Shown here: positions 10,470 through 58,500 of the stretch, piece after piece
Position numbering within the stretch: position 1 is the first letter of the stretch
Layout: the number at the start of each line of letters is the position of its first letter
NCBI GenBank assembly: GCA_964658305.1
Contig: OZ210885.1
Location: forward strand, 2,914,001 to 2,978,000
Reading direction: 5' to 3'
Length of the DNA stretch: 64,000 nucleotides
DNA from: Leptogorgia sarmentosa
Taxonomy: Eukaryota
Position numbers and translations under genes: made by a program
Notes under the pieces: model-generated
Seen by the model: the letters and a program-made list of their open reading frames with translations, nothing else
Told to the model about the DNA's origin: nothing
The model's database searches: none

Positions 10470-10559
10470 ATGAGTGTAATTTCATAAAATACCTAATTAG
10501 CCTAAAATTGACAAAAATACGAGAATGAGTTCCGCTCGAGTGTGATACTCAAAATCGTC

Positions 10560-13690: not shown

Positions 13691-16600
13691 TTAATTCACT
13701 GTTATATACTTGCCTTTCAGGTGACTTATTTCCTGGGCACATAAATGTTTTCCAGCAATTCGATGCAGGTGTTCTCGCCCTTCTGGCAATATTCTTATCA
13801 CCTGGATTTTCGATAAACTGCTTACAGGAAAGCGGTCTAAGTTTACAGACTCCTGAATTTGGTTGTCAATTAAGACAATATCTTTTCCTTTAGGATGTTT
13901 GGAAACCTTCATTTCCACACATTGCTTGATAATATTATCGGACGAGAATAGAACGAGAAGACCACTTTCATTTTTCAACTTCTTTTGTCCTTCTTGTAGA
14001 GCTTTTTCAAAGTTTTCCCCGTCCATCTTTAGATCATATACTTCAATGATTTTATTATTTTTTAGCATTCGTAGAAAATCGTTGCTGCATCCTAATTTAC
14101 GGACCTCAGACCTAAGGGCAAGAAATAATTCAGAATATTTCCAGTGCCATTTCCCTTCTTCACGCCAGCGTCTCTCTACTCTACTCATTGCTTCCAGCAG
14201 ATAGAGGTAACTCATAACCCTTCTCGGACAAAGGTCACTTTCCACGGCTAAAAAATTGTCTTGACCACATGATGTGGGACATCTTACAGATTGCTTTGCT
14301 TCATGGGACTTCTGGAAAGTGTAAAAGAAAATATTACGAACCATAATGAAATAGACTTTTCAATCAATCAAATTTAACTATTGATCTTAGGAAAAAAATA
14401 AAAAATATATACAAGGCCAATCAATTTTAATAAAAATACGATATGGCAAATAAGCAAAACGGACCATTTTCTAGAACTAATTTTTATTTTTTTATTAACC
14501 AAGAAATCGCACCAGAATTGTTGGACAAGAGTTTCGGCTGACGAACGTACAATTCACGCATATAGGACAAAAAGCGATTTTTCAAACCCAAAATCAGTGG
14601 TTGGTTCCTAAATAATCGAAATTACTACCTGAATATCATATATTTTGAATTTCCCACTTTATTTTAAGTGCACATTTGATTTTCAACTTACCTTTTGTTC
14701 TTTTGTACTTTGTCCGGTGGAATTTTCGATGTGTTCCACTGGTTGCCTCTGGATTCTTTCCTTTTCGTTTCTGTGAAAAGAGTTCATCGACATATTTATT
14801 ACTTAGCATTTTGATAAAGAAACGTATCTTCAAAAACGTGTTAATTTGATAATATAGTTCCAAGCAACACAGCCTATCAACTGATTTCATTGTTATCTCA
14901 TACCGAGTAACTATTAAAATCGGCTAGTTTGTCAGAGCCGCCGCGCTCTTTCCTTTTAAACTGATGGGAAATTATCATATCACACTAGTTTGAACTCATG
15001 CAGTCATGACGACATCATGACTTATTCTAGCACTAGAAGCAGCTGAAAGGAAAGTAATGAGAAGTAAAACGAAAAGAGCCAGGGGCGGCGGAACATATTC
15101 TATTTTGGGGGGGCTAAATTTAAAAAAGTTTATCGTAGTTTTTGTCTAGGTGGAAACACAAACGGCATAGCGTGTAGTCACTGTAGTGATGTCTCCTACT
15201 TTGAAAAATTGTTCAAAATCTACAAAAATACGGATATCAGGATATGCAATTGTGCATAGTGCATACTGTAGAGTGTAGATTATTTGATCATCTCATGACT
15301 CAGTGTCTCGCATTCTGACATTCTTTATGTATTTTTGGGGGGGCTAAGCCCCCCCCACTTTTACTTCTGGCACAGTATACCTATACAGTAGTCCAACTCA
15401 TTGTTTATTTGTAAGCTGTATTCGTCATGATCGTCACTCAGCAAGTGCCCTAAACAGAGGCAGTCACCCCCCTGGCAATACTCAAAATGAATAATACTCA
15501 GGGGGGGTGAATGCCTCTGTTTAGGGCACTTGCTGAGTGACGAATACAGCTTACAAAAAAACAATGAGTTGGACTACTGTATAGTTATACTGTGCTTCTG
15601 GGGGGGGGGCTTTTAGCCCCCTAACCCCCCCTGTTCCGCCGCCACTGAAAAGAGCATATGTTTTTCATGAACGGTTCTTGTCTCTCCCTGCTTCTTATGT
15701 TTGTAAGTCGACGTTACTGGCGAATTGGTGCAATTGTAAACTTTAAACTAGTACGCTGTTATCGTTCGTGGTTCAAAGAAGAAAAATGCCTTGAGGAGCT
15801 CATGAAATTCAAATTCATTTAGAACATAATATTTGTGGAAAAATTGTCACAATCGAATATGCCGCGTTGCAGGACAACAAAGATCATGCAAATACTGTTT
15901 TGCTGCTTTTTATTTATCACGAAACTGTTTTATGTGCAGCATAAAAGTCGTTCCTGAGTTCGGACAATTCTACCTCAGAAATAGCAATTAGCTATAGCAC
16001 ATTCTTAGAATAATGAATGCTGAGACAGTTTTAAGGTCTTCTACACTGGACCCATTGACAGACAGATCTAAATGTCGGCAAAGGAAGGCATATTAATAAC
16101 ATGCACACTGTAATCCCGAAAAAATACAAATTTCTACCCATCCGGATATGAGGATATCATCAACTACGTGCATGCAGCAACGCTTCGCTAACATCAGAGA
16201 AAAGAATTCCGTTGGTCCATTTAGGCATCCAAGTGCAATCACATAACCATGTGATTATGTTATGTGATGTAATGTGGACATCACATAAGCACGTCAATAT
16301 TCCGTCAAGTGCTTTCAATGCGTTCTGTTTGTTCTTAATTACTTTCTGACATGGAACTAGGAATTATTTAATTTTTATACCTTCCACGGTCGATTACGTT
16401 ATTCTCGCAGTGTATGTTTTTGCCTTCGTGTTGTATGCTCTGTAGTTGTAAGATTAGGTTTTCCTTCCAGAGTGTTGTAATTTCATCTATCAACAATTCA
16501 TACTCCTGCCCTAAAGGTTTGTCATCAGCATCATCAGGAAGTCTGGACTTTAAATCATGGTTTTCTTCAATGAACTGTCTCTTCAGTGTTTCAATATAAT

Positions 16601-17852
16601 ACGCTTGCAGGTTTTCAACCTTTAGAAGAAAAAGATGTTTGTAAATCAGAAAGTTTCGATCCGCCACACAACCTGTTATCAGCAAGTCCCAATAATGAGG
16701 GTGATATGTATATGTACTTTAATTACAGTACTGTAATATTAAAAACGTTTGTGGGGGAATACTCAAGAAGTTTGTAAAACCACTTGGCTATGCACACAAC
16801 CTTAACCTAAATTAACTAATAATAATTTTACAACAATTGAGATTTTACAGTTATCACACCACCATTTGAAAATGATTCATGGTATACATCCTGTGGCTTA
16901 ACTAAGTAGTTTATTTACTTCTTCCATATATAAACACCATTATCGGTACCGGTTATTTAACAACAGAAGAAGTAAACCCAAGGTATTTGTGATAGCCAAA
17001 TGGAAATTGAATGTGCATACAATAGTGAGTTTATTTCTGTTCTTTGTGATAATTTTTGCTAATTTGCAGTAACTTGCTAATTAGAATGCTTAATGCAGTC
17101 AAATTAGTTTAGGGTATGGATGTAATATAGCCATGGATGTAATCTTGAGTGTTGTATTTCACTATGTCTCACCTTAACATTGTCTCATGGTTTAGATTAA
17201 CAGCCAATTAAAAGCTGCAATAATAGCAGAGAAACTCTGCCTCACCAAAATTAAAAATGTTGAATAATGTTGCTACAGTTCATGATCACTATTCTTTCAT
17301 AGCTCCACATTCAACATGGCTGGGAGTAACATTTACACAGTACAAGATTTACACAACTTGTACTTGAACCACCAAAGATCAATAATACGGATGACTCTAC
17401 TGAGATTCTATGCAACTCAGTGTGTATATACAAGGCCATAAAGTCGTCCATGCAACTTTGTCTTGCTTAATGGCTTGAACAGGTCTTATAGGCATGCATG
17501 ATAACAATGAAAATGTTGTGTTTGTTATTTTGCCCTGGTGGGCTTGTCCAGACTGTCTAATTTTCACAAAATGTGCAAATATTGCTGCTAAATACTACAG
17601 TCTACAGTAGGTTAACTGCAAAAGGTTGAATCTGGTTTACCAGAAAGGTGTACGACTGTACGTATTGTACTGCAATACAGCTATAAGCCTATAATTTATA
17701 TTGTAACCCTAACCAAAAAGTGGTTGAAACTTTCTTCTGAATAGGCTAGGAAAATATTCGCCCACTTTCGTTTGCACGAACGATAGTCTCGGTGTATAAT
17801 CATATTATTAACTCACTCTTGCCTCGTCTTCTGACGTATCCTTTGAAGCCAT
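13691..17852 (-). CDS. Uncharacterised coiled-coil + putative papain-fold domain protein, paralogue A (~324 aa)
   Basis: Phase-compatible exons 17852-17817 (MASKDTSEDEAR), 16619-16381, 14770-14692 and 14311-13691, all with GT-AG sites and an open frame. Confidence 0.75.
15080..15647. mobile_element. hAT-type MITE in intron 2 of paralogue A
   Basis: TIR CAGGGGCGGCGGAAC / GTTCCGCCGCCACTG. 8-bp TSD AAAAGAGC (15072-15079, 15648-15655). The empty site is seen in paralogue C near 27765. Confidence 0.9.
15371..15594. mobile_element. Foldback MITE nested in the 15080-15647 MITE
   Basis: About 100-bp inverted arms (CACAGTATA.../...TATACTGTG) and a 7-bp direct repeat CTTCTGG at 15364-15370 and 15595-15601. 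Confidence 0.8.
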
Positions 17853-18342: not shown

Positions 18343-21300
18343 TTAATTCACTGTTATATACTTGCCTTCCTGATGATTTATTTCCTGGGCACAAAAATGT
18401 TCTCCAGCAACTTCATGGAGGTATTCTCGCTCTTTTGGCAATATTCTTACCACCTGGATATTCGATAAACTACTTACAGGAAAGCGGTCTAAATTTACAG
18501 ACTCCTGAATTTGGTTGTCAATTAAGACAATATCTTGATGTTTGGAAACCTTAATTTCTACACAGTGCTTTGTACTAGTATCGCCATTGTTTTCGGTATA
18601 GAGGAGAATACCACTTTCGTTTTCCAACTTTTTTCGTCCTTGTTGTAGAGCTGTTTCAAAGTTTCCCCCGTCCTTCTTTTGATTATATAAAAGTTCAATG
18701 AACTTTTGATTTCCAAGGATTGGTAGAAAATCGCTGCATCCTAATTTACGGGCCTCAGCGATAAGGTCACGAAATATTTCATCATATTCAGGGTCCCATT
18801 TCCCTTCTTCACACCAGCATCCCTTTACACTACGCATTGCCTCCGGCAGATAGAGGTAATCCATAGCCCTTCTCGGACAAATATCATATACCACGGCAAA
18901 AAAGTGGTCTTGAACATATGATGCGGAACATCTTATTCTTGCAGATTGCTTTGCTTCATGGGACTTCTGGAAAGTGTAAAAGAAAATAGTAACCATTTTA
19001 AACACTTTATTTTAAGTGCACATTTGATTTTCAACTTACCTTTTGTTCTTTTGTAGTTTGTCCGGTGGAATTTTCGATGTGTTCCACTGGTTGCCTCTGG
19101 ATTCTTTCCTTTTCGTTTCTGTCAAAAGAGTTCATCGACATATTTATTACTTAGCATTTTGATAAAGAAATGTATCTTCAAAAACGTGTTAATTTGATAA
19201 TATAGTTCCAAGCAACACAACCTTCACATCCTATCAACTGATTTCATTGTTATCTCATACCGAGTAACTATATTGAAATCGGCTAGTTTGTCAGAGCCGC
19301 CGCGCTTTTTTCCTTTTAAACTGATGGAAAACTATCATATCACACTAGTTTGAACTCATGCAGTCATGACGACATGCATCATGACTTATTCCAGCACTAG
19401 AAGCAGCGGAAAGGAAAGTAATGAGAATTAAATGCTTTTCGTGGACGGTTCTTGTCTCTCCCTGCTTCTTATGTTTGTAAGTCGACGTTACTGGCGAATT
19501 GGTGCAATTGTAAACTTTAAACTAGTACGCTGTTATCGTTCGTGGTTCAAAGAAGAAAAATGCCTTGAGGAGCTCATGAAATTCAAATTCATTTAGAACA
19601 TAATATTTGTGGAAAAATTGTCACCATCGAATATGCCGCGTTGCAGGACAACAAAGATCATGCAAATACTGTTTTGCTGCTTTTTATTTATCACGAAACT
19701 GTTTTATGTGCAGCATAAAAGTCGTTCCTGAGTTCGGACAATTCTACCTCAGAAATAGCAATTAGCTATAGCACATTCTTAGAATAATGAATGCTGAGAC
19801 AGTTTTAAGGTCTTCTACACTGGACCCATTGACAGACAGATCTAAATGTCGGCAAAGGAAGGCATATTAATAACATGCACACTGTAATCCCGAAAAAATA
19901 CAAATTTCTACCCATCCGGATATGAGGATATCATCAACTACGTGCATGCAGCAACGCTTCGCTAACATCAGAGAAAAGAATTCCGTTGGTCCATTTAGGC
20001 ATCCAAGTGCAATCACATAACCATGTGATTATGTTATGTGATGTAATGTGGACATCACATAAGCACGTCAATATTCCGTCAAGTGCTTTCAATGCGTTCT
20101 GTTTGTTCTTAATTACTTTCTGACATGGAACTAGGAATTATTTAATTTTTATACCTTCCACGGTCGATTACGTTATTCTCGCAGTGTATGTTTTTGCCTT
20201 CGTGTTGTATGCTCTGTAGTTGTAAGATTAGGTTTTCCTTCCAGAGTGTTGTAATTTTATTTATCAACAATTCATACTCCTGCCCTAAAGGTTTGTCTTC
20301 AGCATCATCAGGAAGTCTGGACTTTAAATCATGGTTTTCTTCAATGAACTGTCTCTTCAGTGTTTCAATATACAACGCTTGCAGTTTTTCAACCTTTAGA
20401 AGAAAAAGATGTTTGTAAATCAGAAAGTTTCGATCCGCCACACAACCTGTTATCAGCAAGTCCCAATAATGAGGGTGATATGTATATGTACTTTAATTAC
20501 AGTACTGTAATATTAAAAACGTTTGTGGGGGAATACTCAAGAAGTTTGTAAAACCACTTGGCTATGCACACAACCTTAACCTAAATTAACTAATAATAAT
20601 TTTACAACAATTGAGATTTTACAGTTATCACACCACCATTTGAAAATGATTCATGGTATACATCCTGTGGCTTAACTAAGTAGTTTATTTACTTCTTCCA
20701 TATATAAACACCATTATCGGTACCGGTTATTTAACAACAGAAGAAGTAAACCCAAGGTATTTGTGATAGCCAAATGGAAATTGAATGTGCATACAATAGT
20801 GAGTTTATTTCTGTTCTTTGTGATAATTTTTGCTAATTTGCAGTAACTTGCTAATTAGAATGTTTAATGCAGTCAAATTTGTTTAGCGTATGGATGTAAT
20901 CTTGAGTGTTGTATTTCACTATGTCTCACCTTAACATTGTCTCATGGTTTAGATTAACAGCCAATTAAAAGCTGCAATAATAGCAGAGAAACTCTGCCTC
21001 ACCAAAATTAAAAATGTTGAATAATGTTGCTACAGTTCATGATCACTATTCTTTCATAGCTCCACATTCAACATGGCTGGGAGTAACATTTACACAGTAC
21101 AAGATTTACACAACTTGTACTTGAACCACCAAAGATCAATAATACGGATGACTCTACTGAGATTCTATGCAACTCAGTGTGTATATACAAGGCCATAAAG
21201 TCGTCCATGCAACTTTGTCTTGCTTAATGGCTTGAACAGGTCTTATAGGCATGCATGATAACAATGAAAATGTTGTGCTTGTTATTTTGCCCTGGTGGGC

Positions 21301-21588
21301 TTGTCCAGTCTATCTAATTTTCACAAAATGTGCAAATATTGCTGCTTAATACTACAGTCTACAGTAGGTTAACTGCAAAATGTGGAATCTGGTTTACCAG
21401 AAAGGTCTATTGTACTGCAATACAATATAATTTATTTTGTAACCCTAACCAAAAAGTGATTGAAATTTTCTTCTGAATAGGCTAGGAAAATATTCGTCCA
21501 CTTTCATTTCCACGAACGATAGCCTCGGTGTATAATCATATTATTAACTCACCCTTGCCTCGTCTTCTGACGTATCCTTTGAAGCCAT
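18343..21588 (-). CDS. Uncharacterised coiled-coil + putative papain-fold domain protein, paralogue B (~325 aa)
   Basis: Exons 21588-21553, 20393-20155, 19118-19040 and 18966-18343, with the same phases as paralogue A and an open frame. Confidence 0.75.
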
Positions 21589-26498: not shown

Positions 26499-29400
26499 CT
26501 AGTTGCCTCCAGGGTGATGTATTTCATGAGCGCATAAATGTTTTCCAAAATATTTACGCAGGTATTTGAGCTGTTTTGGCACTATTCTTACCACCTGAAT
26601 TTTAATCAAACCGCTCACCGGAAAGCTTTCCAAACTCACAGGCTCGTGTTTTTGGTTGTCAATTAAGACAATATCTTTCCGTTCAGGATGTTTGGAAACC
26701 TGCATTTCCAGACAGTGCTTGAAAATAGTACCGCCATCGTTTTGCGTGTAGACATACACCAAAAGACCACCCTCCCCTTTCAACTTCTTTTGTCCTTCTC
26801 GTAGCTCTTTTTCGAAATTTTGACGTTTAGGCTCGCCGATTATTTCCTCATGAAGTACTGTAATGTACTTTTCTCTTTGTAAGAAATTCAAAAATTCAGT
26901 GCATCTCAATTCACGAGACTCAGTACGAAGGTCAAGACATAATTGCTCGTGTTTTTTCCCCCATTCTTTTTTTTTAAGGTAGGCGTGCTCTACTCTTCTT
27001 AGTGTTTCCCGTAGAAATATATAATTTGTAACCCTTCTCGGACAAATATATTTTGCCAAGGCAAAAAAATTGTCCTGAGCACATGATGCGGGACATCGTA
27101 TTGGCGCAGATGGTGTTGCTTGGTAGGGCTCCTGAGAAGTGGAGAAGAAAATGTTATTAAAATTACTTTTCAATCAATCACATTACTCACCAAAATATCA
27201 TATATTTACATTTTTGAATTGCTAAATTTGAACTCACCTTTTGTTCTTCTCCAGTTTGTCCTTTGGACTTTTCCATGTTTTCCACTGGTCGCCTCCGGTT
27301 TTGTTCTTCATATCTGTAAAGAGAGTTCATCGAAATATTTATTACTTGGCATTTTGATAAACACATTTATCTTCAAAACACAACCCTCACAAATAAAGCA
27401 ACCTTCCAAACTATCAACCGATTTATTGTACATATCGCATACCGGGTAATGATTGAAATCTATATTTAATGTACAGACTGCGTGCACGATAGTTAATGAT
27501 TTAAGAAAACAAACTGACTGCTCATTACAATTTAGTGATTTAAAAGCAATTAATGGGATCAAACGATCAAACGATCTTCTCGCCCGTATTTACAGGTCCG
27601 TAACTCCATCATTCCTTAGCACTAGAATGAGTGACAGATGAAAAAGAGGCCACTGAGTAAACAACTACCAAGGTGTAAACATATCACACTAGTCTATCCC
27701 ATGCACTCATGATGACATCATAGCTTATAAAAGACTTCGGAAGGTAATAATGACAAGTAAAACGAAAAGAGCATAAGTTTTCAAGCAGGTGTCTCTCCCT
27801 GCTTCTTCGTCGTTTTCTTCAAAGAAGAAAAATGCCTCAGCTCATGAAATTCAAATTCATTTGGAACATAATATTTGTGGAAAAATTGTCACCAATGCCG
27901 AGACAGTTTTAAAGTCTGTTACCCTGGACCCATTGACAGACAGATCTAAATGTCGGGAAAGGAAATTAAGCATAACATGCACCCTGTAAGCCGGAAAGAC
28001 CTACCCATCAGGGATATGAGGATATCATCAACTACGTGCATGCAGCAACGCTTCGCTAACATCAGTGAAAGAATGGGTCCATTTAGGCATCTATTGCAAT
28101 CTACATCACATAAACATGTCAATACTAGGTAAAGTGCTGTCAGTGCGTTCTATTTGTTCCTAACAACTTGCTATTTGGAATTATTTTGTTTTTACACCTT
28201 TTATGGTCCTCTGCTCCATCCTTTACGTCAGTCCCTCTATCTAATGCAGTCGGTTGTGCACCAATGTCTGTCGTTTCAGACAACCCTATAACACGTTCGG
28301 GAATCTAAAAACACAATTACTTTTGGTATAGTACTGATTCTATAAAAATTCCTAAAAAATGTTGGGGTGATAGCATAAAAAAGAACAATATAACAATAAT
28401 GTGCGTTTTATGATGTTTGGTATATTCTAATTTTTTAAATTCCAATATTTTTTTGTATCCGCATAGATTTTGCGTTATGCTAACGTTTGCTTGTTTTTGC
28501 GTTAATTACATTATGATTCGTTAATATTTAAAAATGATAAAAATACAGTCCTAAATTTACAAAAAAACATGAATTTACTGGTAAAAATATTGAATATTTA
28601 TTTATTTATATGTACCTCCATATCTAAATCCACGTTGTCTTTGCGGTGCACTGGAGTTTTCTCACTCATAATTGCACCATTCTCAGAATCCCTCTCTTCG
28701 TTAGTATTTCTGTTTGTTGAATACTGAAGCTAAACGAAATGACATTTTCAGAACACAGAATTTCATTGACATCATTTCATCGGAACCATTCTGTCGTCCT
28801 ATATTTGTAAATTTTAAGATAGTCTAGAAGTTGTTTTTGAAGAAGGTCAACGAACCGCACAATGTTCAAGACAAAATCCAGTGTTTTTTTATGATTGTCA
28901 ATTACACCAAACAATTAAGAAATTATTTGATGAGGTTTTTGTGATATGCGGAATTATCAAGGTCGAGGTAAGCCTTATAATCAGCCGAGCCGAATGTTTT
29001 ATCATACATTTGAAGAATAATAAACAAAGTATTAACACATGAAAAACTTTATTTATGATATAAGCATAATAAGCATTGCATTTGTCTGTGTTAATTAAAT
29101 AGATACCGCTTGCTAATCATCGCAGGCTCATTTTGCAGACAACTCAATCATCTGCTGGCAGATAACTGGATTTTCTGTAGGTTGCGTGAAGCTCTTAGCC
29201 AATCAAATTGCTATTACCAATTACAATGTATAATAACTTAAGTTACATGCAAAATAATATACAGTTAGCATTGCATTTGTAAATACATCGATACTGTACG
29301 TACCTGCTTTAATCGTTGGTGTTTTTCAACGAGTATTTTATTTTGCTTTCTTAGCGTTGTTACCTCCTTACAGAAGATACAGAAAGATTGTCAGTAACAA

Positions 29401-31416
29401 ATCACAAAATTCCTGCCACCCAATCAGTTATCAATGAGTTCGATTAATTGGTGCCAGTACCTAGTACGTACATTGATAAACTTCGAATTGGCTATCACTA
29501 ATACCTAATGAACTAGCTCTTCCTGTTGAATGTAGTAATTCATGCTACTGTAATTTGTTTAAGTGTGTGTCAGAAAGTCAAGGTTTATATATACTTCTTT
29601 CACCTTTTGCAAATATATAACCAAATCATGCTTTCCGACCATGCTCCTTAACCATGATCCTCAACCATGCCCTTGATCATGTTTCCTAACTAATGCTCTT
29701 TAACTGTGCTTTAACCAAAACTTACCGGGAATAATGTTCAAGACAAAATCCAGTATATGACTGTGCGCATGTTTTTTTATGAAAATAATTAAGAAATTAT
29801 TTGATGAGGTTTTTGTGATATGCGGAATTATCAAGGTCGAGGTAAGCCTTATCATCAGCCGAGCCGAATGTTTTATCATACATTTGAAGAATAATAAACA
29901 AAGTATTAACACATGGAAAACTTTATTTGACGTATAGGTAATAGTATGGTTTCGAGTGCAATTTGGAATTAACATGCACGAGTGAGTTTTCCAAAGTCCT
30001 CAAAATAGCACGAGTCCGAAGAACGAGTGCTATTTGAGAGTTTTGAGGTCTTTGGAAAACTCACGAGTGTATGTTATCCAAATTGCACGAGAAACCATAC
30101 TCTTACTTGTTAATAGTTTGCATAAAAGTATTTGAGACAATTGTAGTTTTAACTGTCTCAAAGCGAAATTTCACCGGCAGAGTTTTCTTGCTTAGTTTAT
30201 TTCACATTTTACAGCGATAACGGTTTCAAAAATTCACCCAAACACGTAACTTTTGTTAGTCTTGTTGGAGATAAACTTTTTTCCGTCATAAGAAAAAGCT
30301 AAAAGCTATATTTTCGACTCTAATTTGATTGGTTGAAAGTGATAACAATTGCACCGTGATAACACAAAATTGCACTGTGATAACATGTGCACGAAATTTT
30401 CACACTGTGATTACACAAAATTGCACTGTGATTACACAAAATTGCACTGTGATTACAGAAAATTGCACTGTGATTACACGAAATTGCACTGTGATTACAG
30501 AAAATTGCACTGTGATTACAGAAAATTGCACTGTGATTACACGAAATTGCACTGTGATTACACAAAATTGCACTGTGATTACAGAAAATTGCACTGTGAT
30601 TACACAAAATTGCACTGTGATTACACAAAATTGCACTGTGATTACACAAAATTGTACTGTGATTACAGAAAATTGCACTGTGATAACACGAAATTGCACT
30701 GTGATTACAGAAAATTGCACTGTGATTACAGAAAATTGCACTGTGATTACAAAAAATTGCACTGTGATTACAGAAAATTGCACTGTGATTTGGGATTAAC
30801 TGCACTGAAATGAACCAATTGGAGTCGAGTAATACTTTTATGTATATTAATAATGATATAATAAGCATTTGTCTGTGTTAATTAAATAGATACCGCTTGC
30901 TAATCATTGCAGGTTCATTTTGCAGACAACTCAGTCATCTGCTAGCAGATAACTGGATTTTCTGCATGTTGTGTGAAGCTCTTAGCCAATCAAATTGCTA
31001 TTACCAATTACAATGTATAATAACTTAAGTTACATGCAAAATAATACAGTTAGCATTGCATAAATTGTAAATACATCAATACTGTACGTACCTGCTTTAA
31101 TCGTTGGTTTCCTTCAACGAGTATTTTATTTTGCTTTCTTAGCGTTGTTACCTCCTTACAGAAGATACAGAAAGATTGTCAGTAACAAATCACAAAATTC
31201 CTACCACCCAATCAGTTATCAATGAGTTCGATTAATTGGTGCCAGGCCTTGTTCGTAAACTTCCAATTGGCTGTGATCACTAATAGCTAATGACCAGTAA
31301 TTCTTGCTACTATAATTTGCAGTAACATTGTAAAATATGTGCTGGCTAAATACACTGATGCATGTCTCCTTTAATTCTTGGTTTTCTACTGTCAGTTGCC
31401 TTTGCAACTGTTCAAC
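26499..31416 (-). CDS. Uncharacterised coiled-coil + putative papain-fold domain protein, paralogue C (start exon not found)
   Basis: Phase-compatible exons 31416-31354, 31154-31092, 29366-29304 (63 nt each), 28729-28616, 28304-28198, 27313-27238 and 27131-26499. The last two are homologous to exons of A and B. Confidence 0.65.
29943..30850 (+). mobile_element. Interspersed element with a one-sided 159-bp hairpin (29943-30101) and a 21-bp minisatellite; copies start at 44105 and 58649
   Basis: Interrupts the second copy of a duplicated intron segment (28861-29457 versus 29734-31243). No TIRs seen. Confidence 0.6.
30347..30789. repeat. 21-bp minisatellite AATTGCACTGTGATTACA(G/C)(A/G)A, about 21 units; 5 units shorter at ~44509-44846 and ~59053-59390
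   Basis: Directly visible. It explains the NCTVIT and CNHSAI ORFs. Confidence 0.95.
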
Positions 31417-31946: not shown

Positions 31947-34816
31947 ATAAATGAATAGAATGGGAGTGTTTGTGTTCTAGTTGGTGCGTAATGATTCGAT
32001 GATATTCAGCCCTATTAATATGCAATATAGCGATTAAATTGCCAAATATTCTGTACTGTAATGGATTACATATACTGAATCTATGTATTGACTATTGACA
32101 GACTAAGATCGACGATCACAACATTCTTAGTACATAATTATATCATTACTTACATTAACCTTTTCCAAATCCATATGTCGCAAAAGACCTCTGGCAAAAG
32201 ACAATGATATCTAAATAAATACAGACATATTCAAACAATTATCTGACATTATACATCAAAACGGAAATATTAAATTCCAAAATAATAATGAACCTCCTTA
32301 AACAGATAATGTTAATGTAATACTACTCCAATTACGCACTGTACTAACAATTCCAAAACTTCACACACAAAAATGTTTACAAATGACATTACATGGGTTT
32401 TTTTCGTTTTTTTCTTCAATACTATCTTCAATATTATTTCGATTACTCAGCATAAAAATCAGTGATCAGCGCTCTCACAACGAATTTTCAAAATTCCTTA
32501 GCGTGAGCTCCGGAATTCCTCAGATATTCCCAAAATTCCTTAAATGACTTGTTTATCCTTGCAACTACCCCCAAAGTACCCTGCAATCCCGTTCTTTTGC
32601 CTCTTGTTTTAAAAACAAGACTCAAATAGTTTCAAAATCGTTAATAAACACAATTTGTGAGGTACCTGAGCTTACTAAAGTATATACAAGATAAAATGGG
32701 ATAGAATGAGCAGTGGCGTAGCGAAGCCATTCCGATAGGGGTGGTGTAAAGCAAAATATTTTACCGACCTAAATAGGTTTGGGCACGACAGGGCCAGATT
32801 ATTTGGCGGGGAGGGCGAGTCTCACGAGACGCCACCATGGTTGGCGTCGAGCGAGAAAATTTTGTGAATTTAGAGCCTCTAGATCGCCGGAAACGGCCAT
32901 TTCAGAGTGTTAACCAAAGCCTTAACACTCAGAATAGAGTCTAGAGGTCTTAGATGTAGTACAACCACAGCTTGCGAACTAATCGCACACGGACATAGAC
33001 AACAGACATATACTTTTACATATTTTACTTTTCTACTCTCTCTGTGATTTAATGACATAAATTGAAAATTTACCGACCCTTTGGCTTCAAAACCGACCAC
33101 AATTCATTTACCGACCATTTTCAAAAAAATTGGGGGGGTGTCACACCCCCCACACCCCCCACACCCCCCCCCCCCCCCCCCTCGCTACGCCCCTGAATAC
33201 TACGCTGAATGTGTGCTTTACAAAGATATTTTAATTTGTGAATAAGACAGTACTCAATATATGTGCACTTGTCAATCTTTTACATTCTATATTCTCACTC
33301 AGCTTAGTGTTAGGCTATTGAAATTATGAAAATAGATCATTTTCAATACTCGCTGTTCACACAATTTGAACACAACTGATTTCAAAAGATAATTTCTTAT
33401 ATAATGTAGAACACGAATATGTGAATATTCTTAAATATATTGCAAAATTAGCTAAATAAATATCAAAGCACTAACTTGATTGTTGCGTTTAATATTCATA
33501 TTTAATTTCTAGGTTACAGACTCAATGTGACAATTTTGATGACAAAAGTGGTGTCTGACTGGCTTGCCTGTATATTAGAATGTGTCAAAGAGCCTTGCTG
33601 TCGATCAATCAATTATAAAAAGATACTGATAGCTCAGAATGAATCGAATTGTGAAATGTTGCATAATACGGTCCACAACTCTTCTCAGAAATCTTTACAA
33701 GCAAATTTTTCTTATGACCATGTTTATCTCAGTAATCCTCAAAAGGTAAAAATAATTCACTACGCATAAAGGTACTACGATTTGTCGAGCACAATTCGGA
33801 GTCTGGCGTATGTAATCGGGTGAACACGCGCGAGAAAGTCGCATTTCAAATTACGATTCAAACTTTACACCCAGGAATTACATGCAGAGGTCTAACTGTT
33901 GTACCCATTTTTGTGCGCATGCTCGGCAAGTTACTTGATGCGTACATCTGATTGGATGACGACCAAATTTGAACTTGCCGAGTTGATCATTTTTTAGCCA
34001 GGCCGCATTAAAAAAGTGGGCACATGAAAATGCCACTTTTTAATATTTAGTTAGACCTCTGTCTGATATATACTCTGTGCTCTTAACGAAGTAGAATGAT
34101 GGCATACGTCTTTTTTCATACGTCTGAATGCGAATTGTACCGACTAATCGTAGCGTGTAAACGTATCTTGAAAGTGCACATGTCTAAAATCTTGCACTAA
34201 CAAAGTGTAAAGATCAAGATCACATAATTGAAAAACGCACCATGACCAATGTCTCTTTGAATACTAAACGAATGTAAAAAACATTGGTTGGAAATAATTT
34301 GTTTCGTCAGATGTATTTGATAGAGTTCTAGAAAAAATCTTGAAAAATTTCAAATAAATCAACATCGTCTATAATAAGACGATGAACTTCCGTCGACTTG
34401 ACGAATTCTGATTTATCATTGAGGTGATGAGTTCACATGATGCCATACAATCGATGCCAGTCTATAGTATACTCTCGAATTATCTTTCCAGTATACAACA
34501 TCACCGAACATTTTTGTTCTCCTTATTTCGCATTAAACCTGTTTCATGCGAAACAGAATCTATTCGGTTTTTAGAAATTTTATTACCAAAAAGAATAAGA
34601 TTATCCAAGAATACATTATTAGTGTCCATTTATAGGAATACAATGAAAGCTGCTTTTCGAAGGTCCTAAATGGCAATATAAAAGGTAAGTGATATGCGAT
34701 GATCTCTTAGAGTCCATTTTGGGTCAAAGTATTTTTACTTTTAATTAATAGCTATAATAAACAACCTTAACGATCTCAAAATTTCAAAATCATCGAAGTT
34801 TGAAATAGAGGGATAT

Positions 34817-39889: not shown

Positions 39890-41039
39890 AGAACGCGAGC
39901 ACATGGATTATGGAAATCGATGAGCAAAAACATGCGCGCGCAGCACAAATTATTGTTCGACCGCACCCCTCATTTTCTAAAATGACCTGGAGGTTGCGAA
40001 ATCCCCCCGGAATTATCATCCGGACAGAAACAAATCGAGATTTCGACTATACATAGTACCGCGCAAAAGACTGGGTCGAGTGAACTCTGGGAAATCCTTG
40101 TGACGTCAAGAATAGTGTGCTGACTCGCTGGCGCTCGGCAGCAATGAAACTGAAAACGTATTGTGACTTGTCAAGGACTACAGTTTACGGAGGCAAACAT
40201 TCTCGACAGTTCCACTGGTTGCCTCCGGATTCTTTCGTCTTCCGGTTTCTGTGAAAAGAGTTCATCAACATATTTACTTACTTAGCATTTTGATAAAGAA
40301 ATGTATCTTCAAAAACGTGTTAATTTGATAATATAGTTCCAAGCAACACAACCTTCACAACCTAACCTATATCAACTGATTTCATTGTTATCTCATACCG
40401 GGTAACTATTGAAATCCGCTAGTTTGTCAGAGCCGCCGCGCTCTTTTCCTTTTAAACTGATGGAAAACTATCACATCACACTAGTTTGAACTTTGCCTGA
40501 TTTACATGCATGTTTTAAAGACATGCATGAGTGTTGGTTAGACTATTCTGCCTTAACTTAAGTCATGACAAACGATCGATTTTTCTTCACGTTTAATCTC
40601 TCTTTTAAAAGCAAAACGAATCTATCTTTTAATACGACGCCCGAAAAAATAGTCCCCGCCCCTTATACCAATGTCAAATATTCACTTCCGGTTATCCGTG
40701 ATTGTAGTAAATGAATGACGTATCATTGACATTTGAGAACACTACCATATTAGGATGCATGCAAGGATGATAGACACTAAGGCACTAGTTACAGTGATAG
40801 ATGTATTCTGGAGTAAAGCTTTGTGGTTAAATAATAAATATAAATAACGTAAAGGATATAATTATATTACAGTGATTTAAAATATTATATAAAAAATATC
40901 AATTTTTACATCCTTTACAACGAGTATTATTATAAGAACCAGGCAATGGATGAGCTATTATAAAGCTATATATACATTTTACTTGTTTTTAAATCTACCA
41001 CTCGCATATCACGGGCTGGAAACCGTGGTATTTGAAATT

Positions 41040-44000
41040 CAAAGAAATTCAAAAATTCGGTGCATCTCAATTCACGAGACTCAGTACGAAGGTCAAGACA
41101 TAATTGCTCGTTTTTTTTTACCCCATTCTTTTTTTTAAAGGTAGGCGTGCTCTACTCTTCTTAGTGTTTCCCGTAGAAATATATAATTTGTAACCCTTCT
41201 CGGACAAATATATTTTGCCAAGGCAAAAAAATTGTCCTGAGCACATGATGCGGGACATCGTATTGGCGCAGATGGTGTTGCTTGGTAGGGCTCCTGAGAA
41301 GTGGAGAAGAAAATGTTATTAAAATTACTTTTCAATCAATCACATTACTCACCAAAATATCATATATTCACATTTTTGAATTGCTAAATTTGAACTCACC
41401 TTTTGTTCTTCTCCAGTTTGTCCTTTGGAATTTTCCATGTTTTCCACTGGTCGCCTCCGGTTTTGTTCTTCATATCTGTAAAGAGAGTTCATCGAAATAT
41501 TTATTACTTGGCATTTTGATAAACACATTTATCTTCAAAACACAACCCTCACAAATAAAGCAACCTTCCAAACTATCAACCGATTTATTGTACATATCGC
41601 ATACCGGGTAATGATTGAAATCTATATTTAATGTACAGACTGCGTGCACGATAGTTAATGATTTAAGAAAACAAACTGACTGCTCATTACAATTTAGTGA
41701 TTTAAAAGCAATTAATGGGATCAAACGATCAAACGATCTTCTCGCCCGTATTTACAGGTCCGTAACTCCATCATTCCTTAGCACTAGAATGAGTGACAGA
41801 TGAAAAAGAGGCCACTGAGTAAACAACTACCAAGGTGTAAACATATCACACTAGTCTATCCCATGCACTCATGATGACATCATAGCTTATAAAAGACTTC
41901 GGAAGGTAATAATGACAAGTAAAACGAAAAGAGCATAAGTTTTCAAGCAGGTGTCTCTCCCTGCTTCTTCGTCGTTTTCTTCAAAGAAGAAAAATGCCTC
42001 AGCTCATGAAATTCAAATTCATTTGGAACATAATATTTGTGGAAAAATTGTCACCAATGCCGAGACAGTTTTAAAGTCTGTTACCCTGGACCCATTGACA
42101 GACAGATCTAAATGTCGGGAAAGGAAATTAAGCATAACATGCACCCTGTAAGCCGGAAAGACCTACCCATCAGGGATATGAGGATATCATCAACTACGTG
42201 CATGCAGCAACGCTTCGCTAACATCAGTGAAAGAATGGGTCCATTTAGGCATCTATTGCAATCTACATCACATAAACATGTCAATACTAGGTAAAGTGCT
42301 GTCAGTGCGTTCTATTTGTTCCTAACAACTTGCTATTTGGAATTATTTTGTTTTTACACCTTTTATGGTCCTCTGCTCCATCCTTTACGTCAGTCCCTCT
42401 ATCTAATGCAGTCGGTTGTGCACCAATGTCTGTCGTTTCAGACAACCCTATAACACGTTCGGGAATCTAAAAACACAATTACTTTTGGTATAGTACTGAT
42501 TCTATAAAAATTCCTAAAAAATGTTGGGGTGATAGCATAAAAAAGAACAATATAACAATAATGTGCGTTTTATGATGTTTGGTATATTCTAATTTTTTAA
42601 ATTCCAATATTTTTTTGTATCCGCATAGATTTTGCGTTATGCTAACGTTTGCTTGTTTTTGCGTTAATTACATTATGATTCGTTAATATTTAAAAATGAT
42701 AAAAATACAGTCCTAAATTTACAAAAAAACATGAATTTACTGGTAAAAATATTGAATATTTATTTATTTATATGTACCTCCATATCTAAATCCACGTTGT
42801 CTTTGCGGTGCACTGGAGTTTTCTCACTCATAATTGCACCATTCTCAGAATCCCTCTCTTCGTTAGTATTTCTGTTTGTTGAATACTGAAGCTAAACGAA
42901 ATGACATTTTCAGAACACAGAATTTCATTGACATCATTTCATCGGAACCATTCTGTCGTCCTATATTTGTAAATTTTAAGATAGTCTAGAAGTTGTTTTT
43001 GAAGAAGGTCAACGAACCGCACAATGTTCAAGACAAAATCCAGTGTTTTTTTATGATTGTCAATTACACCAAACAATTAAGAAATTATTTGATGAGGTTT
43101 TTGTGATATGCGGAATTATCAAGGTCGAGGTAAGCCTTATAATCAGCCGAGCCGAATGTTTTATCATACATTTGAAGAATAATAAACAAAGTATTAACAC
43201 ATGAAAAACTTTATTTATGATATAAGCATAATAAGCATTGCATTTGTCTGTGTTAATTAAATAGATACCGCTTGCTAATCATCGCAGGCTCATTTTGCAG
43301 ACAACTCAATCATCTGCTGGCAGATAACTGGATTTTCTGTAGGTTGCGTGAAGCTCTTAGCCAATCAAATTGCTATTACCAATTACAATGTATAATAACT
43401 TAAGTTACATGCAAAATAATATACAGTTAGCATTGCATTTGTAAATACATCGATACTGTACGTACCTGCTTTAATCGTTGGTGTTTTTCAACGAGTATTT
43501 TATTTTGCTTTCTTAGCGTTGTTACCTCCTTACAGAAGATACAGAAAGATTGTCAGTAACAAATCACAAAATTCCTGCCACCCAATCAGTTATCAATGAG
43601 TTCGATTAATTGGTGCCAGTACCTAGTACGTACATTGATAAACTTCGAATTGGCTATCACTAATACCTAATGAACTAGCTCTTCCTGTTGAATGTAGTAA
43701 TTCATGCTACTGTAATTTGTTTAAGTGTGTGTCAGAAAGTCAAGGTTTATATATACTTCTTTCACCTTTTGCAAATATATAACCAAATCATGCTTTCCGA
43801 CCATGCTCCTTAACCATGATCCTCAACCATGCCCTTGATCATGTTTCCTAACTAATGCTCTTTAACTGTGCTTTAACCAAAACTTACCGGGAATAATGTT
43901 CAAGACAAAATCCAGTATATGACTGTGCGCATGTTTTTTTATGAAAATAATTAAGAAATTATTTGATGAGGTTTTTGTGATATGCGGAATTATCAAGGTC

Positions 44001-45473
44001 GAGGTAAGCCTTATCATCAGCCGAGCCGAATGTTTTATCATACATTTGAAGAATAATAAACAAAGTATTAACACATGGAAAACTTTATTTGACGTATAGG
44101 TAATAGTATGGTTTCGAGTGCAATTTGGAATTAACATGCACGAGTGAGTTTTCCAAAGTCCTCAAAATAGCACGAGTCCGAAGAACGAGTGCTATTTGAG
44201 AGTTTTGAGGTCTTTGGAAAACTCACGAGTGTATGTTATCCAAATTGCACGAGAAACCATACTCTTACTTGTTAATAGTTTGCATAAAAGTATTTGAGAC
44301 AATTGTAGTTTTAACTGTCTCAAAGCGAAATTTCACCGGCAGAGTTTTCTTGCTTAGTTTATTTCACATTTTACAGCGATAACGGTTTCAAAAATTCACC
44401 CAAACACGTAACTTTTGTTAGTCTTGTTGGAGATAAACTTTTTTCCGTCATAAGAAAAAGCTAAAAGCTATATTTTCGACTCTAATTTGATTGGTTGAAA
44501 GTGATAACAATTGCACCGTGATAACACAAAATTGCACTGTGATAACATGTGCACGAAATTTTCACACTGTGATTACACAAAATTGCACTGTGATTACAGA
44601 AAATTGCACTGTGATTACACGAAATTGCACTGTGATTACAGAAAATTGCACTGTGATTACAGAAAATTGCACTGTGATTACACGAAATTGCACTGTGATT
44701 ACACAAAATTGTACTGTGATTACAGAAAATTGCACTGTGATAACACGAAATTGCACTGTGATTACAGAAAATTGCACTGTGATTACAGAAAATTGCACTG
44801 TGATTACAAAAAATTGCACTGTGATTACAGAAAATTGCACTGTGATTTGGGATTAACTGCACTGAAATGAACCAATTGGAGTCGAGTAATACTTTTATGT
44901 ATATTAATAATGATATAATAAGCATTTGTCTGTGTTAATTAAATAGATACCGCTTGCTAATCATTGCAGGTTCATTTTGCAGACAACTCAGTCATCTGCT
45001 AGCAGATAACTGGATTTTCTGCATGTTGTGTGAAGCTCTTAGCCAATCAAATTGCTATTACCAATTACAATGTATAATAACTTAAGTTACATGCAAAATA
45101 ATACAGTTAGCATTGCATAAATTGTAAATACATCAATACTGTACGTACCTGCTTTAATCGTTGGTTTCCTTCAACGAGTATTTTATTTTGCTTTCTTAGC
45201 GTTGTTACCTCCTTACAGAAGATACAGAAAGATTGTCAGTAACAAATCACAAAATTCCTACCACCCAATCAGTTATCAATGAGTTCGATTAATTGGTGCC
45301 AGGCCTTGTTCGTAAACTTCCAATTGGCTGTGATCACTAATAGCTAATGACCAGTAATTCTTGCTACTATAATTTGCAGTAACATTGTAAAATATGTGCT
45401 GGCTAAATACACTGATGCATGTCTCCTTTAATTCTTGGTTTTCTACTGTCAGTTGCCTTTGCAACTGTTCAAC
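41040..45473 (-). pseudogene. Truncated copy of paralogue C, unit 2
   Basis: Premature stop at 41135 (HAYL*) and a ~550-bp deletion (unit-1 26328-26880) that removes the His and DNQ motifs. Confidence 0.85.
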
Positions 45474-46523
45474 CTTCAGAAGAGACAGACAGTCAGATTG
45501 TTACAAATCACAAAACCCAATCACTCATCAATGAGTTCGATTAATTGGTGTTCAATGTAGGTAATTCTTGCTACTGTGCCTTAACCAAACCTTAATCATG
45601 CTTTCATTGTGCCTTTACCATACCCTTATCCTGCCATTACCGTGCTCCTTAACTATGCTATTCAACCATGCTCATCAACCATTCTCCTTTAACCATTCTC
45701 CTTAACCATGCTTTAACTATGCCTTAATTGTACCTTAATCGTGCTGCTCAACTATGCTCCTCAACTGTGCTCTTTAACCATGCTTATGAGTTATGAAACA
45801 ACTCTCTAACAATGTTCCTTAATTTACCATGCCTTAACTGTATCCTAACCATACCTTGACCATAATTTAACCGTCCCTTAATCATGCAAAAAACGGTGTC
45901 TCAACCATACCCATACTATGCCTTATAACCATCCCTTAACCGTACCTTCTTCACCATACCTTAACCATGCCTTAACAGTACCTTAACCATACCTTAACTA
46001 TGCATAAATGAATAGAATGGGAGTGTTTGTGTTCTAGTTGGTGCGTAATGATTCGATGATATTCAGCCCTATTAATATGCAATATAGCGATTAAATTGCC
46101 AAATATTCTGTACTGTAATGGATTACATATACTGAATCTATGTATTGACTATTGACAGACTAAGATCGACGATCACAACATTCTTAGTACATAATTATAT
46201 CATTACTTACATTAACCTTTTCCAAATCCATATGTCGCAAAAGACCTCTGGCAAAAGACAATGATATCTAAATAAATACAGACATATTCAAACAATTATC
46301 TGACATTATACATCAAAACGGAAATATTAAATTCCAAAATAATAATGAACCTCCTTAAACAGATAATGTTAATGTAATACTACTCCAATTACGCACTGTA
46401 CTAACAATTCCAAAACTTCACACACAAAAATGTTTACAAATGACATTACATGGGTTTTTTTCGTTTTTTTCTTCAATACTATCTTCAATATTATTTCGAT
46501 TACTCAGCATAAAAATCAGTGAT

Positions 46524-53409: not shown

Positions 53410-55589
53410 AAAAAAACATTTAAAAAATATCGCCAACGCAATGCAATACATTGTAGGAACAAACTGTTTTGCTCCTAAAATTTATCGCATTGCGTTCGCT
53501 GTCAGAAAATGAAAGATAACCGATTCAGACGGTTTTTCTTTGTAAACCATAGCAGTATTTATTAGTATATAAATATTATAAGGTTGGCAAGTAAACAATA
53601 ATGTGACTTACTACGGCTTACTAAAACAAGTCGAAAAAATCAACGTCTTGCCAACAAACGTCGCTAAAAAATAGCAGCCCCTACTTCTAGGATAGTGTTA
53701 CTAAATACATACAACGTTGAACGTTTTTTGGCAACAAAACGAGTGAAAAAGTCGAAAAAATACGAAAAATTTCTTTCAATTTGCCGTGTCTCGAAGCTGG
53801 ATGCCTTCTGACATCGCTGACGCGATCTTTTGTCGGTTTATTTATAACGAAGACAATGACGAAGACAATGACGAAGACAATGACGAACACTTCTGTCGTG
53901 ATACTTTTGTTGGCTTCACTTTTCGCTCTATGTTATCGTTCCAGATATAATATATAGAGTTCACTGATAATCCCCCTGTGGATTCATGTGATTCGTCATC
54001 ATTCCATGACAGCACTTGCTCCGTCCTCATGGTATTTACCACTGACCAGGCTCAAATCTGAGCCCACTGCCGTTTTCACACCCCTGTCTGCGAGACTGCG
54101 TGCGCAGATACAAAAATATGGTTTGATTCCTCCACCCTCAAAAAATTGTACTGTTCCCCAGAATTAAGACAATCGGAAGAAAGGACAGACACCAGGGGCC
54201 GGTTGTATCAAAGGCGTCAAGCTTAAGCGCTGGATAAGTCGAAAATATCCAACGAAATTATGAAGTATTGACTACAAGGAAACTAAACTTTTCTGTGTAA
54301 ACATAACAACTATGCATAGAGATAGAACTACACATTTAGTTGATAAAATTTAAATTCAATTATTTACAAAATGAATAGAAGTGTTTTTAAAATTTTGCTT
54401 ATCCACCGTTTAAGCTAAACGTCTTTGGTACAACCGGGCAGAACGCGAGCACATGGATTATGGAAATCGATGAGCAAAAACATGCGCGCGCAGCACAAAT
54501 TATTGTTCGACCGCACCCCTCATTTTCTAAAATGACCTGGAGGTTGCGAAATCCCCCCGGAATTATCATCCGGACAGAAACAAATCGAGATTTCGACTAT
54601 ACATAGTACCGCGCAAAAGACTGGGTCGAGTGAACTCTGGGAAATCCTTGTGACGTCAAGAATAGTGTGCTGACTCGCTGGCGCTCGGCAGCAATGAAAC
54701 TGAAAACGTATTGTGACTTGTCAAGGACTACAGTTTACGGAGGCAAACATTCTCGACAGTTCCACTGGTTGCCTCCGGATTCTTTCGTCTTCCGGTTTCT
54801 GTGAAAAGAGTTCATCAACATATTTACTTACTTAGCATTTTGATAAAGAAATGTATCTTCAAAAACGTGTTAATTTGATAATATAGTTCCAAGCAACACA
54901 ACCTTCACAACCTAACCTATATCAACTGATTTCATTGTTATCTCATACCGGGTAACTATTGAAATCCGCTAGTTTGTCAGAGCCGCCGCGCTCTTTTCCT
55001 TTTAAACTGATGGAAAACTATCACATCACACTAGTTTGAACTTTGCCTGATTTACATGCATGTTTTAAAGACATGCATGAGTGTTGGTTAGACTATTCTG
55101 CCTTAACTTAAGTCATGACAAACGATCGATTTTTCTTCACGTTTAATCTCTCTTTTAAAAGCAAAACGAATCTATCTTTTAATACGACGCCCGAAAAAAT
55201 AGTCCCCGCCCCTTATACCAATGTCAAATATTCACTTCCGGTTATCCGTGATTGTAGTAAATGAATGACGTATCATTGACATTTGAGAACACTACCATAT
55301 TAGGATGCATGCAAGGATGATAGACACTAAGGCACTAGTTACAGTGATAGATGTATTCTGGAGTAAAGCTTTGTGGTTAAATAATAAATATAAATAACGT
55401 AAAGGATATAATTATATTACAGTGATTTAAAATATTATATAAAAAATATCAATTTTTACATCCTTTACAACGAGTATTATTATAAGAACCAGGCAATGGA
55501 TGAGCTATTATAAAGCTATATATACATTTTACTTGTTTTTAAATCTACCACTCGCATATCACGGGCTGGAAACCGTGGTATTTGAAATT

Positions 55590-58500
55590 CAAAGAAATTC
55601 AAAAATTCGGTGCATCTCAATTCACGAGACTCAGTACGAAGGTCAAGACATAATTGCTCGTTTTTTTTTACCCCATTCTTTTTTTTAAAGGTAGGCGTGC
55701 TCTACTCTTCTTAGTGTTTCCCGTAGAAATATATAATTTGTAACCCTTCTCGGACAAATATATTTTGCCAAGGCAAAAAAATTGTCCTGAGCACATGATG
55801 CGGGACATCGTATTGGCGCAGATGGTGTTGCTTGGTAGGGCTCCTGAGAAGTGGAGAAGAAAATGTTATTAAAATTACTTTTCAATCAATCACATTACTC
55901 ACCAAAATATCATATATTCACATTTTTGAATTGCTAAATTTGAACTCACCTTTTGTTCTTCTCCAGTTTGTCCTTTGGAATTTTCCATGTTTTCCACTGG
56001 TCGCCTCCGGTTTTGTTCTTCATATCTGTAAAGAGAGTTCATCGAAATATTTATTACTTGGCATTTTGATAAACACATTTATCTTCAAAACACAACCCTC
56101 ACAAATAAAGCAACCTTCCAAACTATCAACCGATTTATTGTACATATCGCATACCGGGTAATGATTGAAATCTATATTTAATGTACAGACTGCGTGCACG
56201 ATAGTTAATGATTTAAGAAAACAAACTGACTGCTCATTACAATTTAGTGATTTAAAAGCAATTAATGGGATCAAACGATCAAACGATCTTCTCGCCCGTA
56301 TTTACAGGTCCGTAACTCCATCATTCCTTAGAATGAGTGACAGATGAAAAAGAGGCCACTGAGTAAACAACTACCAAGGTGTAAACATATCACACTAGTC
56401 TATCCCATGCACTCATGATGACATCATAGCTTATAAAAGACTTCGGAAGGTAATAATGACAAGTAAAACGAAAAGAGCATAAGTTTTCAAGCAGGTGTCT
56501 CTCCCTGCTTCTTCGTCGTTTTCTTCAAAGAAGAAAAATGCCTCAGCTCATGAAATTCAAATTCATTTGGAACATAATATTTGTGGAAAAATTGTCACCA
56601 ATGCCGAGACAGTTTTAAAGTCTGTTACCCTGGACCCATTGACAGACAGATCTAAATGTCGGGAAAGGAAATTAAGCATAACATGCACCCTGTAAGCCGG
56701 AAAGACCTACCCATCAGGGATATGAGGATATCATCAACTACGTGCATGCAGCAACGCTTCGCTAACATCAGTGAAAGAATGGGTCCATTTAGGCATCTAT
56801 TGCAATCTACATCACATAAACATGTCAATACTAGGTAAAGTGCTGTCAGTGCGTTCTATTTGTTCCTAACAACTTGCTATTTGGAATTATTTTGTTTTTA
56901 CACCTTTTATGGTCCTCTGCTCCATCCTTTACGTCAGTCCCTCTATCTAATGCAGTCGGTTGTGCACCAATGTCTGTCGTTTCAGACAACCCTATAACAC
57001 GTTCGGGAATCTAAAAACACAATTACTTTTGGTATAGTACTGATTCTATAAAAATTCCTAAAAAATGTTGGGGTGATAGCATAAAAAAGAACAATATAAC
57101 AATAATGTGCGTTTTATGATGTTTGGTATATTCTAATTTTTTAAATTCCAATATTTTTTTGTATCCGCATAGATTTTGCGTTATGCTAACGTTTGCTTGT
57201 TTTTGCGTTAATTACATTATGATTCGTTAATATTTAAAAATGATAAAAATACAGTCCTAAATTTACAAAAAAACATGAATTTACTGGTAAAAATATTGAA
57301 TATTTATTTATTTATATGTACCTCCATATCTAAATCCACGTTGTCTTTGCGGTGCACTGGAGTTTTCTCACTCATAATTGCACCATTCTCAGAATCCCTC
57401 TCTTCGTTAGTATTTCTGTTTGTTGAATACTGAAGCTAAACGAAATGACATTTTCAGAACACAGAATTTCATTGACATCATTTCATCGGAACCATTCTGT
57501 CGTCCTATATTTGTAAATTTTAAGATAGTCTAGAAGTTGTTTTTGAAGAAGGTCAACGAACCGCACAATGTTCAAGACAAAATCCAGTGTTTTTTTATGA
57601 TTGTCAATTACACCAAACAATTAAGAAATTATTTGATGAGGTTTTTGTGATATGCGGAATTATCAAGGTCGAGGTAAGCCTTATAATCAGCCGAGCCGAA
57701 TGTTTTATCATACATTTGAAGAATAATAAACAAAGTATTAACACATGAAAAACTTTATTTATGATATAAGCATAATAAGCATTGCATTTGTCTGTGTTAA
57801 TTAAATAGATACCGCTTGCTAATCATCGCAGGCTCATTTTGCAGACAACTCAATCATCTGCTGGCAGATAACTGGATTTTCTGTAGGTTGCGTGAAGCTC
57901 TTAGCCAATCAAATTGCTATTACCAATTACAATGTATAATAACTTAAGTTACATGCAAAATAATATACAGTTAGCATTGCATTTGTAAATACATCGATAC
58001 TGTACGTACCTGCTTTAATCGTTGGTGTTTTTCAACGAGTATTTTATTTTGCTTTCTTAGCGTTGTTACCTCCTTACAGAAGATACAGAAAGATTGTCAG
58101 TAACAAATCACAAAATTCCTGCCACCCAATCAGTTATCAATGAGTTCGATTAATTGGTGCCAGTACCTAGTACGTACATTGATAAACTTCGAATTGGCTA
58201 TCACTAATACCTAATGAACTAGCTCTTCCTGTTGAATGTAGTAATTCATGCTACTGTAATTTGTTTAAGTGTGTGTCAGAAAGTCAAGGTTTATATATAC
58301 TTCTTTCACCTTTTGCAAATATATAACCAAATCATGCTTTCCGACCATGCTCCTTAACCATGATCCTCAACCATGCCCTTGATCATGTTTCCTAACTAAT
58401 GCTCTTTAACTGTGCTTTAACCAAAACTTACCGGGAATAATGTTCAAGACAAAATCCAGTATATGACTGTGCGCATGTTTTTTTATGAAAATAATTAAGA

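Follow-up and report, generated by a model that had tools for sequence, protein, structure and literature searches.

In a 64,000-nucleotide stretch of the animal Leptogorgia sarmentosa (GenBank assembly GCA_964658305.1, contig OZ210885.1, positions 2,914,001 to 2,978,000), hereafter the window, the terminal exon of gene C encodes a 210-residue domain that is predicted to adopt a papain-like fold in which Cys17 takes the place of the nucleophile. Judged from the topology of the model, Cys17, His139 and Asp158 would lie together in a single catalytic site. Since the conserved D158-x-Q160 at a strand end fits OspI and Tox-PL1, an OspI-like protein-glutamine deamidase, that is, an intracellular Cys-His-Asp enzyme acting on a specific protein, is ranked above the other readings, tentatively and at somewhat under an even chance. 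A six-frame profile search over 1,618 window segments located the domain in three full exons (paralogues A, B and C) and three partial ones (D, C' and C''), and the features are collected in Table 1.

Conservation and predicted fold of the gene C domain

The minus-strand exon (27131-26499) has 210 open codons, with a ttctcag acceptor just upstream. It carries the SCAQDNF, GGLLVYVY, KHCLEM and IVLIDNQ segments on which an earlier sequence-only reading had based its proposal of a Tox-PL/OspI-like papain-fold enzyme; the Cys and His codons lie where that reading put them, and IVLIDNQ is indeed the same in A, B and C. The codons of Asp158 and Gln160 are GAC (26660-26658) and CAA (26654-26652).

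HMMER, run against 1.84 billion representative sequences at E<=0.001, returned 15 matches: the same gene (P0002), 13 relatives and a spurious repeat protein of 2,069 residues (P0018, E 2e-6), which was dropped (probability 0.16). A further profile search added three relatives, and none of the relatives is annotated beyond 'hypothetical protein'. Alignment A3 comprises 19 rows, namely the three window sequences and 16 relatives, with P0009 swapped for its longer cluster-mate P0022 and with P0002, P0018-P0021, P0023, P0024 and P0028 excluded; its median pairwise identity is 31% (171 pairs). Conservation of the triad among homologues, as expected earlier, holds across the family, where Asp158 occurs in every row and Cys17 and His139 in most (Table 1), and fails within the window, where only one of the three full paralogues has all three residues. 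Cys13, Cys30, Cys77 and Cys200 are invariant even in rows that have lost His, which argues for a structural role of these four residues. On one branch P0016, P0026 and P0027 carry Asp or Tyr in place of His, next to the sisters P0011 and P0025, which have His; some of these sequences come from contigs of equal length. Judged from the alignment, the triad was lost repeatedly in this further lineage.

The model built from the 19 rows contains a core helix (17-25), strands at 122-129, 136-145 and 154-158 and a helical insert (31-72), the core helix being followed by an antiparallel sheet in papain order. The helix begins at residue 17, in agreement with the earlier expectation of a Cys before a helix. 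Full-span papain matches start at residues 9-17, in register with their own catalytic Cys, and for the six papain-fold matches the register of Cys17 is exact in four and off by one in two. In the viral structure library BFVD, Tox-PL1 models take ranks 1 to 3, at E>=1.4e-3 and a TM of about 0.32. Structure prediction and structure search have thus yielded the papain-like fold and nucleophile register that had been proposed, and together with the DxQ they sustain the structural half of the Tox-PL/OspI-like claim, with Tox-PL1 as a possible nearest structural neighbour, while no link to Tox-PL1 or OspI was found at the level of sequence. The former concern over a long Cys-His spacing falls away, as the 122 residues here compare with 117 in CtaG (by entry titles) and 89 in SpvD. 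In the model, residues 29 and 196 are isolated bridge residues and the insert lies between Cys30 and Cys77, which makes a Cys4 zinc clamp across it plausible.

Two candidates were set aside. A first model built on three rows (pLDDT 60) gave no resolved structure for residues 1-39, and the 19-row model replaced it. Cys77 was rejected as nucleophile, as it begins a helix that precedes the first strand and as Cys17 is the residue used in the full-span alignments.

It is very improbable, in our judgement, that the fold or active site is misassigned, with the cysteines including Cys17 forming metal sites or disulfides, or with Cys30 or Cys77 as nucleophile. Such a misassignment would fit the higher conservation of Cys13, Cys30, Cys77 and Cys200 relative to Cys17, a possible metal pair in C13-x3-C17, the matches of the shallow first model, which covered residues 76-186 only and included polymerase little-finger domains, and the Atlas result for P0008, which points elsewhere. 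Against it stand the papain matches in register and the position of Cys17, which opens the core helix, as the nucleophile of papain-like enzymes always does according to PMC10318531.

Table 1. Domain, exons and gene copies in the window (positions counted from the first letter of the window)
Feature	Position	Strand	Support
Gene C terminal exon, 210-aa predicted papain-like domain	26499..27131	-	Cys17-His139-Asp158(-x-Gln160) complete
Cys17, predicted nucleophile, start of helix 17-25	TGT 27083-27081	-	7/8 covering rows
His139, predicted catalytic base, near start of strand 136-145	CAC 26717-26715	-	15/19 rows
Asp158-Asn-Gln160 (DxQ), end of strand 154-158	26652..26660	-	Asp 19/19, Gln 17/17 rows
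Cys13, Cys30, Cys77, Cys200, candidate structural Cys4 zinc site	26532..27095	-	7/7, 11/11, 17/17, 19/19 rows
Gene C exon, charged linker, 76 nt	27238..27313	-	joints 27130/27237 and 27313/28198 in X1, X2, X5
Gene C exon, low-complexity linker, 107 nt	28198..28304	-	gene model and spliced contigs
Gene C exon, 114 nt	28616..28729	-	loose end behind 28306 in X1, X2, X5 fits exon end
Gene C exon of 63 nt, leucine-zipper-like, three heptads with Leu at each seventh residue	29304..29366	-	sequence; predicted exon
Duplicate of the 63-nt heptad exon	31092..31154	-	sequence; predicted exon
Gene C predicted first coding exon, 7 codons, GTAAGT donor	32154..32174	-	prediction only
Paralogue A, 324 aa, exons 17852-17817, 16619-16381, 14770-14692, 14311-13691	13691..17852	-	X2 joins all three introns, X5 two of them
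Paralogue B, 325 aa, exons 21588-21553, 20393-20155, 19118-19040, 18966-18343	18343..21588	-	gene model
Paralogue D, terminal-exon start (SCARESF..ICPRR), stop after ~63 codons	7252..7443	-	profile search and sequence
Copy C', ~14-kb tandem duplication, upstream exons as in C	41038..46231	-	terminal exon from 41293, truncated
Copy C'', truncated as C'	55588..60775	-	terminal exon from 55843

Candidate enzyme class and competing readings

By prediction, the domain would work like Tox-PL1, OspI and SpvD. It shares with Tox-PL1 (PF15644), whose signature is given as NC-H-DxQ in PMC3482391, the predicted papain fold, the order of C, H and DxQ and the C-terminal position, and Tox-PL1 models lead BFVD at the scores given above. 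The domain differs in carrying SC instead of NC (Ser precedes Cys in 8/8 covering rows), in having a long helical insert and a further four invariant Cys, in matching no HMM of that family, in the intron-containing gene, where the family table of PMC3482391 lists only bacteria, and in having no secretion or immunity gene context. As there is no match to the Pfam profile and Ser takes the place of Asn before the Cys, the domain is not assigned to Tox-PL1. Shigella OspI, the Ubc13 glutamine deamidase, is 9-10% identical, has a Cys-His spacing of 83 and is injected, whereas the present domain is host-encoded. Identity is 8%, with no sequence match, to the YopT/C58-type Salmonella SpvD and Pseudomonas AvrPphB, the latter forming its oxyanion hole from Asn93 and not from a DxQ Gln (PMC3636029), and 12-14% to Yersinia YopQ (8brf), which is shorter and lacks most of the insert. 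The eukaryotic papain-fold groups ZUFSP/Mug105, UfSP, Josephin and VTD gave no Pfam match. The D-x-H of VTD, UfSP and Atg4 proteases, as described in PMC9741609, is absent, Asp158 being followed here by x-Gln and preceded by the His.

The same fold and triad could belong to a site-specific protease or an isopeptidase for ubiquitin or ubiquitin-like proteins (AvrPphB, SpvD, ZUFSP/Mug105, Josephin-like clippases); structure scores do not split deamidases from proteases or deubiquitinases. This alternative is possible and, on balance, rather unlikely, in view of the conserved DxQ, which is the Tox-PL1/OspI signature, the Tox-PL1 models at the head of the viral library and the missing VTD motif.

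Sequence searches of Pfam, NCBIfam, PHROG and the PDB gave no match that accounts for the domain. Single-sequence Pfam searches found 0 families for P0001 (no match at E<=10) and B and two weak, unrelated ones for A; the Tox-PL1 profile matched 0/16 members of alignment A2 at E<=1. PF03543 (Peptidase C58) was absent from the Pfam matches, and this family appeared among language-model features at 0.90 with low shared counts. NCBIfam and PHROGs gave scattered matches in 1-2/19 members only, the PDB sequence search NCF2 alone at E 0.17-0.22, a chance level, and the PDB profile search nothing below E 0.2. A word-index search confirmed 1/130 candidates, the same gene. Relatives were confirmed in 0/75 candidate stretches from prokaryote species genomes and 0/427 from viral contigs, and tblastn gave no match in phages, all searches of limited reach; the gene may have been transferred from bacteria, but these searches gave no prokaryotic relative that would speak for it. 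A degenerate pattern had 0 occurrences in viral contigs, and a metagenome scan gave 0/395 stretches. No longer relatives were seen among 7,992 candidates, which is weak evidence, as an ankyrin-linked form was found later: upstream of the domain in relative P0006, an in-frame partial ankyrin repeat lies at L001:11-100 (Pfam Ank E 5e-4; 20.7 bits, below the 21.1 cut-off), so that N-terminal partners vary within the family. No paper describing the family was found, though a family without a name is difficult to look for; the supplementary new-family tables of PMC10318531 could bear on its novelty.

Several observations weigh against the deamidase reading. Besides the SC, insert, extra Cys and missing HMM match that separate the domain from Tox-PL1, the indiscriminate structure scores and the partial matches of the first model, a loose C..H..DxQ pattern is contained in 526/10,000 shuffles, and in 39/10,000 once strand context is added, a context chosen after the fact. 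The bare motif being weak, support for an enzyme rests on family conservation and fold. Moreover, only C has a complete triad among the three full paralogues, A having Gln for His139 (CAA 13924-13922) and B Tyr for Cys17 (TAT 18918-18916); in 5/6 window copies a triad residue or the greater part of the domain is missing, and His is replaced in 4/19 alignment rows. These losses would suit a family that is mainly a non-catalytic binding or decoy module on a papain fold, the triad of C being a leftover and protein binding the conserved function, as would the splicing of A with its Gln and of the truncated C type in three runs. We nevertheless consider this unlikely, given that C-H-D is complete in 6/8 rows spanning both ends of the domain, which sit on separate tree branches, that losses fall on few tips and that the A-like sequence P0005 retains His.

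Under the deamidase reading, His139 and Asp158 would activate Cys17, which would attack the amide, and water would release the acyl-enzyme. Gln160 would form the oxyanion hole, as Gln162 is proposed to do in OspI, where Asp160 orients His145 (PMC3636029). The Cys4 zinc site (13/30/77/200) would clamp the helical insert and help in substrate choice, and the N-terminal zipper would dimerise or target the enzyme, whereas A, B and the truncated copies would be non-catalytic binders or in decay.

Gene structure, splicing and tandem copies

The gene C model encodes 358 amino acids with GT-AG introns, and A and B are likewise modelled with GT-AG introns, their domain exons being 52% (A) and 47% (B) identical to that of C. 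None of the three proteins has a hydrophobic N-terminus (best 9-residue hydropathy 0.1-1.0), which bears out the absence of a signal peptide stated earlier for A and B. The leucine-zipper pattern of the two 63-nt exon copies was read from the sequence. Another heptad exon-like stretch (31416-31369, minus strand) has a good acceptor and GA where the GT donor is expected, and was excluded from the model. Relatives P0007 and P0022 start, at the position where the exon of C does, with what appears to be splice-acceptor sequence read as protein. A 21-bp minisatellite occupies intronic positions 30403-30790 (18.5 copies), 44565-44847 (13.5) and 59109-59391 (13.5). Several of its frames are open, and the long ORFs found in it are artefacts of the repeat.

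Splicing was read from sequencing runs X1, X2 and X5 (from two studies, one of them perhaps the source of the window), which are taken as RNA-like solely from the GT-AG introns skipped in their contigs, none being recorded as RNA. Their contigs skip exactly the predicted gene C introns 27130/27237 and 27313/28198, whereas those of X3, X4 and X6 read through 27130/27237, and the intron-containing nature of the gene type noted earlier is thereby upheld. A contig of X2 spans the Gln codon of A with 0 differences, so A is spliced with its substituted His; no B-specific joint occurs among the joints from the run contigs. As regards intact C, the contig over the last C-type splice joint bears variants of the truncated copies, and the piece 26322-26928 shows 0 differences in X1, X2 and X5, with no bridge to a splice joint. 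A spliced transcript of intact gene C is nonetheless likely.

The tandem expansion described earlier is confirmed by the six copies and by the ~14-kb units, more than 99% identical to the C unit, in which C' and C'' sit. In their terminal exons a frameshift and a stop follow residue 52, and a stretch of 553 bases with the His and Asp codons is missing. Assembly error was rejected as the cause, the joint of the 553-base deletion being present in all runs examined. With the stop in the last exon, these copies, the type spliced in X1, X2 and X5, could give a 200-residue zipper-plus-linker protein without the enzyme core. Paralogue D has related upstream exon-like stretches near 13081, 12883 and 10740, and relative P0017 matches the last 18 residues of degenerate D (7252-13081, minus strand) at 72%, which implies intact D-type genes elsewhere.

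About three of the tandem units lie within positions 25779-64000. Every unit carries a C-type gene together with an exon for a fibrinogen domain, and the region around 51586-53975 shows small inversions and rearrangements. The fibrinogen C-terminal domain exon (Pfam E 1.5e-46) lies at 36631-37041 and 50683-51093 on the plus strand, opposite to the C genes, and is duplicated with the unit; fibrinogen-domain proteins are often immune lectins. At 3396-6231 (plus strand) are exons of a receptor-like gene. They encode fibronectin-III domains, a transmembrane segment and a cytoplasmic tail that carries the tyrosine motifs YEN, YEE, YTA and YTH, and the sequence resembles an immune or phosphatase-type receptor. 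The introns and these fibrinogen and fibronectin-III exons would by themselves point to an animal as the likely source.

Evolution and biological meaning

Between A and B, introns differ by 0.6-3.4%, the 3' flank by 2.8% and the 118 upstream codons by 8 changes, whereas the domain exon differs by 14%, with dS 0.137, dN 0.189 and a ratio of 1.38 (bootstrap 0.83-2.61); for C against A or B the ratio is 0.66-0.70. The raised dS indicates that the domain exon is older than its flanks and hence that conversion or exon exchange occurred. P0005, which keeps His, is A-like in front and B-like at its end. Fast change confined to the domain exon, tandem and dead copies and varied N-terminal partners fit a gene of conflict or immunity, and relaxed selection fits as well. 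A role in defence or in self/non-self conflict is the weakest step of the explanation. The fullest scenario is improbable as a whole. In it, an animal lineage would have domesticated a Tox-PL1/OspI-type toxin domain as a cytosolic protein-glutamine deamidase, equipped it with a zinc clamp and with exchangeable N-terminal modules (leucine zipper, ankyrin), and kept it in a rapidly evolving defence array where a single active enzyme stands next to dead and truncated decoys.

In the accounts drawn on here, DxQ enzymes of the OspI/Tox-PL1 type come from bacteria and phages and act there against proteins of a host or a rival. If the deamidase reading is true, a host-encoded family that has neither name nor profile in the libraries searched would add a class of protein-modifying enzyme to animals and a candidate effector to invertebrate immunity. 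One intact, two substituted and three truncated copies provide built-in controls, and activity and substrate are directly testable. Should the domain prove to be merely another protease or a binder, it would still represent a new papain-like family of narrow spread.
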